64,000 nt of DNA from Escherichia phage vB_EcoM_Schickermooser. The stretch lies in sequence record NC_048196.1; one strand, given 5' to 3'. The notes beneath the pieces are model-generated. The model did not search any database. It saw nothing but the letters and a program-made list of their open reading frames with translations, and was not told where the DNA came from. Position numbers and translations under genes: made by a program. Below, in pieces: positions 43,157 to 57,871 of this stretch (position 1 is its first letter; each line of letters starts with the position of its first letter).

Positions 43157-44116
43157 TTAGATTCCAATAATAGTTGCTGCTCGTTTATCTTTGGATCTGG
43201 TGTTTGCTCTACTACGTGACAAACCTCCACAAGATTCACAACGAATGATATCGAAAGAACTTACCGCAGTGTGGTATTGTTTACCAGTAACAACGTGAAC
43301 GTGATCACTGCCACAACGAGAACAACGGACCTTCTCATCTGGGTAATAAGCGGATAAGTTAGGATGCTGTGGAATCCACGGAAGGATTTTCATATACAAA
43401 TCACGGAGCGAAACAACATCACCATCATTGTAAATCTGCATACGTTCAAAAGCATCACGATCACCTTCACAACATGCTTTCCATAAAGGGAACCCCTCGT
43501 TATCCAGTTTTTCACTTTCTGTTTCGAAATATGCTCCCATTTCTTTAAGGGAGTTGGAAGGAAGTGCAAATTGTTTCTTAGCTGCCTTCAATGTATCAAC
43601 AACTACATAATTAGAAGGAGGAGCCATATCGTGATATGCAAATCGTTGGTTAATGTATGCACGGTCAAACTTATATCCGTTGTGTGCCACAACTACATCT
43701 GCCTCATTCAGAAGGTTCCAAAGATCTTGGCAAAGCTCCCAATCATCTGTATGATCAATATCAAAAAGAGGATAAGAAGACAAGTTCTTACCTTCCACTT
43801 CACCAGTATACAGGTCGGCAGAAGAGTAAGATAACAAATAACCCCTACGAATTACTTGATCTGGAGAAATGAAGGCTTTGAATCGACGGAAAGTATATGC
43901 AATCTCTGGTGCAGTTTCAACATCAATAATTTTAATAACTGGTTGTTTCTTTTTAACTGGCTCTTGTTTACTTGCTCCGAATCGTGCAAGGAAATCGTTC
44001 ACTGTGCTTTTTCTTGTTGGACTACCTAAAACAATTGCTGCAATATTGCGAGAAGACATACCCTCTGCACTCATACTAAGGATATCTGCTTTCTGCTCTT
44101 CTGTTAATCTGCTCAC
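43157..44116 (-). CDS. DEDD-type 3'-5' exonuclease with N-terminal HTH and C-terminal zinc ribbon
   Basis: IIDVETA (Exo I), VVAHNGYKFD (Exo II), YNDGD (Exo III-like); CSRCG ... CESCGG. Confidence 0.55.
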   Translation of the reverse strand: MSRLTEEQKADILSMSAEGMSSRNIAAIVLGSPTRKSTVNDFLARFGASKQEPVKKKQPVIKIIDVETAPEIAYTFRRFKAFISPDQVIRRGYLLSYSSADLYTGEVEGKNLSSYPLFDIDHTDDWELCQDLWNLLNEADVVVAHNGYKFDRAYINQRFAYHDMAPPSNYVVVDTLKAAKKQFALPSNSLKEMGAYFETESEKLDNEGFPLWKACCEGDRDAFERMQIYNDGDVVSLRDLYMKILPWIPQHPNLSAYYPDEKVRCSRCGSDHVHVVTGKQYHTAVSSFDIIRCESCGGLSRSRANTRSKDKRAATIIGI

Positions 44117-45243
44117 TCTGCCTCCTGTTGCGAGATGTATGACTGAAGCATACTCTCAAATGTTGTATCGTCATTATCCCAGCGTTTCATGTATACCAAC
44201 TGGAAAATTGTTTCTATCCATTCATCTGTTGTCATATGGACTTCTTCTCCATCCCAAGAAGTAAAATTAACACCATCTGGGAACCATGAGTAGTAAGTAT
44301 CTTTAACTGTTTGGAAAAGTTCTGCTTGAGTTTTACAAGCTGAAAGAAGATTAAAACAAGTAATATCTCCGAACTTAATATCAAAATCTTGATAAGGTCG
44401 GATACTATCTGTTTTATCTCCCATTAGCATCTGATATGCTAACCAGTAACTGCCCCAACCTTTAACTTCTTTCTTTTTACCTTTATCTACGATCCATATG
44501 TCGCCAATAGACTCGTCAATAAGAATTATATCTGGATTTTTAAATACTCCATCCTCTTTGTAGAAATTAAAAAGGATACTAGGAGTATGTAAACTATCTT
44601 TATCTATAGATACAACGATATAAGAAAATTTACCCGTCCTTTTATAATCTTTATAACCTTGGAAACCATACTTCTCTAACTCATCATCAGCTTCTATTAC
44701 AGTAACAACATCACCATTGTGGAACTCCACAAGATAATCTTTGGTTTCTGAAAGCTGGAGTGGTTTGATATCTAATCGTTCAGATTTATATTCTACAGGC
44801 ATTTTGAAGGCGTGTCTGAAAGTTTTTCCTACGCCAATAACTCCGCAATATTTTTCTAAACGTAGATGTTTTAGAATACCTAAGACTTTTGTTTTAGCTG
44901 CTTGGAAGGTGTGTCCGATATCTTCTGGCGGATATTGCTTATCAATGATTTCGAACTCTTCCTTTGTGAAGGGACGTTTGTTTTTGGAGGCTCTTTCTGC
45001 ATTTGTATCTCCTAGCCAACCTCCAATTTTAGTCTTGCTTTTACCCCAAAACTCTGTCTTATTTTTAAATTCCTTTTGAGCACCTGAAGGGATGTGCTTC
45101 GCAATGATTGTTCTTTTCTCTAATGCAGACGCTGCTTGGAAAGCGATCTGATCATAATCAATTGCAGCTATTGTTTCTTCGTTGACATATAAATGAAGAT
45201 CTTCAGGTTTAATTAAAATATAACCGCTAATATTTCCCCCTAA
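44113..45243 (-). CDS. FEN-family 5'-3' exonuclease/flap endonuclease-like protein; start unresolved
   Basis: EADD, SIDKD and GDKTDSIRP motifs; frame is open from first ATG (44802) up to 45243 with no ATG/GTG/TTG. Confidence 0.45.
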   Translation of the reverse strand, partial: LGGNISGYILIKPEDLHLYVNEETIAAIDYDQIAFQAASALEKRTIIAKHIPSGAQKEFKNKTEFWGKSKTKIGGWLGDTNAERASKNKRPFTKEEFEIIDKQYPPEDIGHTFQAAKTKVLGILKHLRLEKYCGVIGVGKTFRHAFKMPVEYKSERLDIKPLQLSETKDYLVEFHNGDVVTVIEADDELEKYGFQGYKDYKRTGKFSYIVVSIDKDSLHTPSILFNFYKEDGVFKNPDIILIDESIGDIWIVDKGKKKEVKGWGSYWLAYQMLMGDKTDSIRPYQDFDIKFGDITCFNLLSACKTQAELFQTVKDTYYSWFPDGVNFTSWDGEEVHMTTDEWIETIFQLVYMKRWDNDDTTFESMLQSYISQQEAE

Positions 45244-45453
45244 TTATTCATCGTCATCCTCTGTTGAGAATGTTTTAGTATACGGACATTGACGACTTTT
45301 CGGGATTGCTATAACTTCATCTTGGTTAGCGTTAGAATAGTAGCAATATTTTGTGTTGCCATTAACTTCAGAATCAGACAAGATTAAAGTAATTTGACCT
45401 GCTGCTACTGTGAAACTAAAAGCTAAAAGAACGACTGTCAGAATCTTTTTCAT
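45244..45453 (-). CDS. small secreted protein
   Basis: signal-peptide-like MKKILTVVLLAFSFTVAAG; AGGAGG SD. Confidence 0.5.
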   Translation of the reverse strand: MKKILTVVLLAFSFTVAAGQITLILSDSEVNGNTKYCYYSNANQDEVIAIPKSRQCPYTKTFSTEDDDE

Positions 45454-45468
45454 AACGCCTCCTAAAAA

Positions 45469-45492
45469 GCCTACCTCATTAAGTAGGTAGGC
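45469..45492 (-). terminator. stem-loop GCCTACCT...AGGTAGGC
   Basis: perfect 8-bp inverted repeat followed on minus strand by TTTTT, then the SD. Confidence 0.4.
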
Positions 45493-45521
45493 ATAATATC
45501 ATAACTAATCCCGCAAGTCAA
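45493..45521 (-). promoter_or_regulatory. sigma70-like promoter, minus strand (TTGACT-N17-TATTAT)
   Basis: -35 is the reverse complement of 45516-45521, -10 of 45493-45498. Confidence 0.5.
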
Positions 45522-51854: not shown

Positions 51855-52199
51855 TTAGTAGTGCACACGAATCATTTTAATACCATAACGCAGCATAGAT
51901 TCTTTTGCAAGCATGAATTTATCCCCAGCGGCGGGATTAGAAGTATGCACGAAAATGGTGGGTGAACCAAAGCAAGGTTTACCAAACGCCAGAAGTTCTT
52001 CCAGGTACAGGAAAACATCATACCCATCTTGGTCTGACTCCATACCTAAATCATTGTCAAAAGACCACTCGGTTACTCTTCGATACAGTTTAGCAGGATC
52101 GTTGAGAAAGGCCATAGCTTCTTGTGACGTTTTAAACCAAATTGCATCCTCCTGTCCATAGTCGGCTGGGTTCCGCATATCATCTATCCAAACTTTCAT
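51855..52199 (-). CDS. hypothetical protein
   Basis: 114-aa ORF. Confidence 0.5.
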   Translation of the reverse strand: MKVWIDDMRNPADYGQEDAIWFKTSQEAMAFLNDPAKLYRRVTEWSFDNDLGMESDQDGYDVFLYLEELLAFGKPCFGSPTIFVHTSNPAAGDKFMLAKESMLRYGIKMIRVHY

Positions 52200-55946: not shown

Positions 55947-56021
55947 GGCCCTGTAGCTCAATGGGAGAGCTGTCGGCTCATAACCGATAGGTAGCTGGAT
56001 CGAAACCAGCCAGGGCCACCA
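55947..56021 (+). tRNA. tRNA-Met (anticodon CAT; could be Ile2/lysidine type)
   Basis: manual cloverleaf: acceptor GGCCCTG/CAGGGCC, anticodon loop CTCATAA, encoded CCA. Confidence 0.6.
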
Positions 56022-57792: not shown

Positions 57793-57871
57793 AGCGGGAT
57801 AGAGGAGTCTGGTCGTCCTCGCCAGTTTCATATGCTGGAGATCATCGGTTCAAATCCGATTCCCGCCTCCA
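57793..57871 (+). tRNA. tRNA-Met (anticodon CAT), 1-72 mismatch (initiator-like?)
   Basis: acceptor AGCGGGA/TCCCGCC with A1-C72 mismatch, anticodon stem CCAGT/GCTGG, loop TTCATAT, T-loop TTCAAAT, CCA. Confidence 0.5.

Follow-up and report, generated by a model that had tools for sequence, protein, structure and literature searches.

A FEN-family exonuclease gene of phapecoctaviruses with a probable ATT start codon, and the conservation of a weak start across its phage clade

This report concerns an exonuclease gene on the minus strand of Escherichia phage vB_EcoM_Schickermooser, analysed within a 64,000-nt stretch of its genome (NC_048196.1), hereafter called the window. The full-length coding sequence (CDS) occupies 44113..45231 (minus strand), consists of 372 codons and a TGA, and probably starts with ATT. 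Upstream of it lies a 69-aa open reading frame (ORF) with a signal-peptide-like N-terminus (45244..45453, minus strand), whose TAA at 45246-45244 is located 12 nt before the ATT; the phi92 orthologue of this ORF carries a SignalP signal peptide in its annotation. Between 44000 and 45500 the sequence matches Escherichia phage vB_EcoM_3A1_SA_NWU at 100% identity, and 63 GenBank members of the genus Phapecoctavirus (phAPEC8-like, Stephanstirmvirinae) reach at least 95%. Translation of 45453..44113 revealed that the minus-strand frame after the TAA, which opens with TTAGGGGGAAATATT, is uninterrupted to the TGA at 44115-44113, and that ATG, GTG and TTG are all absent from its first 147 codons (45243 to 44803), the ATG at 44802 being the first canonical start. 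A previous sequence-only reading had described this open frame and had placed the TAA of the upstream gene in the same frame immediately before it, and our retranslation agrees on both counts. The 441-nt extension proposed there holds as an open frame, but its coding part is 429 nt (143 codons, from ATT 45231), since the TAA is followed by four codons (TTA GGG GGA AAT) that form the ribosome-binding site.

In 23 long ORFs of the window, ATG, GTG and TTG together make up 4.95% of codons, and from their codon usage the chance of a stretch of 143-147 sense codons lacking all three was calculated as approximately 6e-4. No other real gene in the window has a stretch like this; three further ORFs whose leaders lack a start over 44-55 codons were rejected as shadows of opposite-strand genes. 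Loss of a canonical start through a sequencing or assembly error has nothing in its favour beyond the oddity itself and is a practically negligible prospect, as the same sequence is present in 63 independently sequenced GenBank genomes, a query carrying ATG found no match among these phapecoctaviruses, and independent metagenome lineages share the architecture.

The extension is coding sequence, as the sequence-only reading had suspected, and belongs to the nuclease fold. On its own (147 aa) it matches PHROG_107 'exonuclease' with an E value of 5.2e-7, and the whole protein matches the same family over residues 14-371 (E 9.9e-56). A tblastn search with the 376-aa frame found 1211 phage records, 899 of which cover at least 80% of it, and the alignments begin at residues 1-20, with identities of 78% in phi92, 42% in PBES02, 37% in rV5 and 29% in ICP1; the homologues do not consistently begin at the equivalent of 44802. 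Comparison with five relatives gave nonsynonymous differences (pN) of 0.16-0.25 per site in the extension against saturated synonymous differences (pS) of 0.71-0.81, which indicates purifying selection; the extension is conserved and not poorly so. In an alignment of 21 homologues, many invariant residues fall within residues 25-140, and those invariant or near-invariant in the extension include D25, D27, Q28, A34, E38, H46, S49, G50, F55, F61, G63, W72 and L73, among others. AlphaFold modelling of the 372-aa protein gave a predicted local distance difference test (pLDDT) score of 93.6, with residues 1-143 at 84-96. The 142 codons that follow the ATT (44803..45228, minus strand), free of canonical starts and under purifying selection, are missing from most database annotations.

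The 372-aa protein is predicted to adopt the PIN-like alpha/beta fold of FEN-family 5' nucleases. The segment IDYDQIAFQAASA (45124..45162, minus strand) would form the first beta-strand and helix with the acidic residues D25 and D27 (strand 21-25 and helix 26-37 in the model), and by eye its motif matches residues 23-36 of T7 gp6, VMDGDWLVFQAMSA. The three acidic motifs named by the sequence-only reading as FEN-like were located downstream, all on the minus strand: EADD (E180, D182, D183; 44683..44694) and SIDKD (D210, D212; 44596..44610) are invariant and align with EGDD and SCDKD of T7 gp6, and GDKTD (D272, D275; 44407..44421), in which G271, D272 and D275 are invariant, aligns with GDITD. 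The metal-binding carboxylate clusters, one of them at the end of strand 1, are as in the FEN superfamily, E180, D182, D183, D210, D212, D272 and D275 being invariant and D25/D27 near-invariant in 21 sequences. We take them, from motif order and not from a residue-level superposition, to be equivalent to the T5 FEN ligands D26, E128, D130, D153, D155, D201 and D204.

Searches of Pfam and the PDB with the protein and a 21-sequence profile returned nothing useful, and no sequence-level PDB match was found, so a fold search was needed. The window protein had no match to Pfam PF02739 (5_3_exonuc_N) at E <= 1. Its relatives P0035 and P0073-P0084 match this family below threshold (E 2e-6 to 4e-5; 24-28 bits against a cut-off of 34.3), and in them PF02739 positions ~30-145 map to window residues ~108-225. 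For the H3TH module, a weak PF01367 match was obtained in one distant relative (P0080, E 0.0087), and GDxTD is conserved. An hhalign comparison with T7 gp6 gave an E value of 0.0018 with a probability of only 15%, over 117 columns on the central motifs. The likeness to the T7 gene 6 exonuclease includes membership of PHROG_107, the motifs DxDxhxFQAxSA, FRxxhxxPxYKxxR, E(A/G)DD, S(I/C)DKD and GDxTD, and a position in the replication/recombination module of the phage; T7 gene 6 differs in its ATG start and its length of 300 aa, the window protein having extra elements that include residues 39-100. Other members of the FEN superfamily (T5 D15, T4 RNase H, E. coli ExoIX and the bacterial/plastid 5'-3' exonucleases) show 10-21% identity to the window protein. 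Together, the sequence motifs and the model support a full-length FEN-family, T7 gp6-like 5'-3' exonuclease as the predicted product.

The internal ATG (Met144; 44800..44802, minus strand), where most GenBank records begin the gene, would give a 229-aa protein. It could be argued that this is the only product and that the N-terminal part is a decaying remnant, as 229 aa is what gene callers put out. We consider this very improbable: the extension is under purifying selection with frames intact in 21 lineages, and there is no Shine-Dalgarno (SD) sequence before the ATG at 44802. The first canonical codon moreover ranges from codon 7 to codon 144 among relatives, again without an SD. From the PF02739 mapping in the relatives, the ORF beginning at Met144 would also be without about the first 65 of 164 positions of the 5'-nuclease N-terminal domain, including strand 1, helix 1 and D25/D27. 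As part of the overall reading assessed below, and with the same high confidence, the 229-aa ORF is therefore considered a gene-caller artefact without the first third of the catalytic domain.

The best-supported start is the ATT at 45229..45231 (minus strand), which aligns with the initiator Met of relatives that have canonical starts. It is preceded, 4 nt (AAAT) away, by the SD sequence AGGGGG (45236..45241, minus strand). The window context from 45231 to 45220 is ATT-AGC-GGT-TAT, and the canonical-start relatives, at about 40% identity, begin at the position aligned with the ATT with M-(S/G)-Y: TTG-AGT-AGA-GAA-TAT (MSREY) in rV5 and ATG-GGT-TAT (MGY) in PBES02, with GTG-GGA-TAT and TTG-GGT-TAT at the aligned start of further relatives. 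All 21 lineages have a GGAGG or GGGGG core 4-5 nt upstream of the aligned codon, and GGRGG followed by 4 nt is the commonest ribosome-binding geometry among canonical-start genes of the window (19/32). The string GGRGGNNNNATH occurs only 10 times in 128 kb, that is, on both strands of the window. A mechanical rule, in which GGRGG is followed after 4-5 nt by a codon opening an ORF of at least 300 codons that contains DxDQ, returned one site per locus, except in the canonical-start relative L026, where there are two adjacent candidates (L and P numbers are our labels for loci and proteins). In L019, L111, L112 and L114 an in-frame TAA stands directly 5' of the ATC start, so their protein cannot begin further upstream, and in all lineages the in-frame stop and the near-cognate codon are 0-8 codons apart with no canonical codon between them. 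Initiation at the rare codon ATT, one of three options raised by the sequence-only reading, is thus supported by the N-termini of homologues, the SD geometry and the in-frame stops of relatives.

A second option was readthrough of the TAA, or a programmed frameshift, which would fuse the 69-aa signal-peptide protein to the nuclease. The upstream TAA is indeed in frame in the window, and a database protein of 444 aa (P0005) looks like such a fusion. The latter (L096 1501-2835) was rejected as a gene-calling artefact: a TAG in the contig appears as Q in the protein, presumably because a recoded genetic code was applied in calling it. In phi92, phiWec179, L100 and L116 the upstream ORF ends in another frame, and two in-frame stops precede the start in L019, L111, L112 and L114 (TAG and TAA) and in L020 (TAA and TAG). 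A secretion signal on a DNA nuclease would also make no sense, and there is no slippery site. The varying upstream frame and the double stops refute readthrough, and fusion by either route is hardly credible.

The third option, termination-reinitiation, has ribosomes that finish the 69-aa ORF at its TAA restarting at the AUU 12 nt on, expression being set mainly by upstream translation. Consistent with this, every lineage has an upstream ORF whose stop lies 1-18 nt ahead of the near-cognate codon, often inside the SD (TAGGAGG), and the layout holds where the upstream gene is another one: a methyltransferase in L103, an HNH gene in L104 and a 34-aa hydrophobic ORF in L101. Analogy with the junction of E. 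coli infC (UAA GGU AUU) also favours it, as reinitiation there contributes about as much as de novo initiation (PMC3592434). On the other side, genes are tightly packed throughout this phage, so the proximity of stop and start is not specific, and a strong SD at the standard phage spacing is what de novo initiation needs. Reinitiation as the main control is, in our view, a tentative and somewhat unlikely account; it is a variant of AUU initiation, with the same AUU and the same protein. The earlier suggestion of reinitiation stands as a possible contribution that would use the same ATT. In L101 (197-301), the 34-aa ORF replaces the 69-aa ORF, its GTG overlapping the previous stop and its end lying 15 nt before the exonuclease ATT.

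Orthologous loci were collected from GenBank, IMG/VR, metagenomes and Logan assemblies, and yielded 34 distinct proteins, which group into 21 clusters at 90% identity, the most divergent pair sharing 45%. The orthologous start codon is ATT in 15, ATC in 13, ATA in 5 and CTG in 1; ATG, GTG or TTG was found in none of the 34. The near-cognate clade is monophyletic in a neighbour-joining tree, and Fitch parsimony requires at least 8 start-codon changes within it (9 with the TTG sister L125). Even L097 and L098, at 86% identity to the window, have ATC in place of ATT. The sister lineage and the outgroups (Vequintavirinae-like, ~40% identity) start with TTG, GTG or ATG. As judged from these sequences, a weak start has been conserved throughout a deep clade of phages.

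In E. coli, AUA, AUC, AUU and CUG initiate at 1-2% of the level of AUG, and a protein initiated at AUC bears an N-terminal Met (10.1101/063800); in another reporter AUU was 6-8 times weaker than AUG or GUG (PMC3592434). Since the start triplets are in effect 'synonymous' (each giving formylmethionine, fMet) and synonymous sites are saturated, the persistent absence of ATG, GTG and TTG points to selection against efficient initiation. At least eight switches inside the weak class and none to AUG, GUG or UUG, down to 45% identity, are difficult to account for unless weak initiation is selected for.

That a near-cognate start can limit expression is already known from E. coli pcnB and infC, the only two genes with confirmed non-canonical starts in that organism, both AUU (10.1101/063800). 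In pcnB, which encodes poly(A) polymerase I, the AUU limits an enzyme harmful in excess, according to Binns & Masters (2002) as cited in PMC3592434. The present case differs in that the gene is a phage gene, the codon moves among AUU, AUC, AUA and CUG, and the limit on expression is a presumed one. In infC, which encodes initiation factor 3 (IF3), an AUU with an SD lies just after the thrS stop, is partly coupled to it and is discriminated against by IF3 (PMC3592434). There the stop-to-start distance is 3 nt, against 12 nt in the phage exonuclease, and the AUU serves an autoregulatory loop that senses IF3, whereas nothing links the phage nuclease to IF3.

Taken as a whole, the reading in which a full-length 372-aa exonuclease is made from an AUU with an SD, the 229-aa call is an artefact and the weak start is kept by selection has, in our estimate, a probability of roughly 0.85. 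The AUU at 45231-45229 would be read by initiator tRNA as fMet, the strong SD AGGGGG 4 nt upstream placing the ribosome on it. The weak start would keep translation of the nuclease at a few percent of the AUG level, as in E. coli pcnB, and would be retained by selection. Translation from it may, in addition, be IF3-sensitive and rely in part on ribosomes that terminate 12 nt upstream.

Several points weigh against this reading. The N-terminus is placed purely by comparison, and in the window a start at a later non-canonical codon, for example the ATT at codon 9 or 11, may be possible; that codon is ATA in L019 and lies at least 15 nt from the SD. The 4-nt spacer is at the short end of the E. 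coli optimum. The lineages of the clade are related, so that the codon counts are not independent events. Folding of the RNA from -70 to +50 relative to the start (z = 0.38) revealed no structure able to gate the start site, and codons 2-11 show average synonymous conservation (219th of 361 windows); with neither extra synonymous constraint nor RNA structure, no independent regulatory signature was found. Finally, the functional reason for a weak start, whether limiting a toxic nuclease or sensing IF3, is suggested by analogy.

Codon counts within the gene bear on a further alternative, in which the weak start is a regulatory device and more than a throttle: initiation would be gated by the fidelity state of the host's initiation apparatus (IF3 availability) during infection, perhaps aided by an initiator-like tRNA of the phage, and nuclease synthesis would be timed to one stage of infection. 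In the N-terminal third (44803-45231 and its orthologues), in-frame ATG accounts for 0.49% of near-cognate-clade codons (14/2846) and for 1.95% in canonical-start relatives (27/1387), an odds ratio of 0.25 with p 1.5e-5, uncorrected for phylogeny. The corresponding values in the rest of the gene are 2.8% and 3.7%, and in the N-terminal part there is no depletion of GTG among Val codons or of TTG among Leu codons. In L096, L112 and L113, too, the conserved Met at codon 143/144 is the first canonical codon. Strong internal starts may have been selected against where the first start is weak, or the rarity of ATG may come from shared ancestry. If the start were indeed such a regulatory device, which we think quite unlikely, the four-fold depletion of N-terminal ATG would be a second trace of selection on start sites.

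The window contains 10 tRNA genes. One of them, a tRNA(CAT) at 57793-57871 (plus strand), is initiator-like, with an A1xC72 mismatch, A11:U24 and a TTCAAAT T-loop. The hallmarks of bacterial tRNA-fMet are a 1:72 mismatch, A11:U24 and three G:C pairs in the anticodon stem that are inspected by IF3; the anticodon stem here, CCAGT/GCTGG, is without these three pairs. Phages of the phi92 type carry the gene at 100% identity over 79 nt, PaulScherrer labels it 'tRNA-fMet', and blastn against E. coli genomes gave no match. Its anticodon arm was found in 26 diverse IMG/VR contigs; it is present in phi92-like and phiWec179-like contigs and in many unrelated viral contigs, whereas the L018 and L022 contigs gave no exact match to it. 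The tRNA could therefore not be tied to the clade; any link between this tRNA and the near-cognate start is speculative. A second tRNA(CAT), at 55947-56021 (plus strand), has a paired G1:C72 and the acceptor stem GGCCC.../...GGGCC, and from a comparison by eye with the E. coli sequence, we take it to resemble tRNA-Ile2 (lysidine, AUA-reading) and not tRNA-Met.

Database annotation of the gene is dominated by the short form, the 229-aa version being present on 385 contigs and the 372-aa version on 1. The start is placed at ATG 44802 in the phAPEC8 RefSeq record, Ro121lw, ASO2A, EF1-1 and vB_Ec-G1. In phi92 and Antha it is a GTG 28 codons past the ATT, the phi92 record noting 'No RBS identified; weak Prodigal statistics', and in phiWec179 a TTG 11 codons past the aligned ATC. 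All inspected records except that of phage ESCO13 annotate a truncated gene. ESCO13 (KX552041.2 / NC_047770.1) has a 1119-nt CDS from the same ATT with an annotated ribosome-binding site feature, and its 'putative exonuclease' (YP_009786567.1 / AQM50955.1) is the identical 372-aa protein. That annotation is a database entry alone, without comparative or experimental support, and was not propagated to the other records examined. The ESCO13 genome announcement (PMC5374246) makes no mention of the ATT start, and the literature searched on start codons or AUU in phAPEC8, phi92 or ESCO13 does not discuss the exonuclease gene; the searches yielded no proteomic or ribosome-profiling data. The ATT start has thus been annotated once for this phage species, and the clade-wide pattern, including ATC, ATA and CTG, appears to be undescribed in the searchable literature. 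A 40-aa ATG ORF at 44880-45002 (minus strand), called 'hypothetical protein' in phAPEC8, Ro121lw and vB_Ec-G1, is almost certainly spurious and fills the gap left by the truncated exonuclease call.

The consequence for annotation is that, ESCO13 excepted, nearly all 63 GenBank phapecoctavirus genomes call a 229-aa 'putative exonuclease' or leave the 5' part blank, and that the truncated calls, including those in phi92-like and phiWec179-like phages, are without the catalytic N-terminus. Gene finders limited to ATG, GTG and TTG systematically break such genes. In this family, coliphages provide naturally occurring candidate starts of all four kinds (AUU, AUC, AUA and CUG), and start-codon swaps in a phage nuclease gene would be a simple system in which to study the purpose of near-cognate starts.

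Elsewhere in the window, other sites combining GGRGG with a near-cognate codon were rejected, as a canonical start is adjacent. At 52142 (minus strand), GGAGGATGCAATT is followed by an in-frame 95-codon ORF whose first canonical start lies 9 codons on; it may be a further near-cognate start, or the gene may simply begin at that canonical codon.

Downstream of the exonuclease lies a 3'-5' exonuclease or 'DNA polymerase exonuclease subunit' gene (43157..44116, minus strand), whose GTG overlaps the exonuclease TGA as GTGA and whose orthologues have PF13482 RNase_H_2 on record. An RdgC-like gene and a small ORF are located upstream, and the whole forms a replication/recombination module. Upstream of the 69-aa ORF, within 45469-45521 (minus strand), there is a promoter-like site (TTGACT, 17 nt, TG-TATTAT; 10/12 matches), directly followed by a terminator-like hairpin (GCCTACCT...AGGTAGGC TTTTT) and then by the SD and ATG of that ORF; the ASO2A annotation gives the hairpin as a rho-independent terminator.

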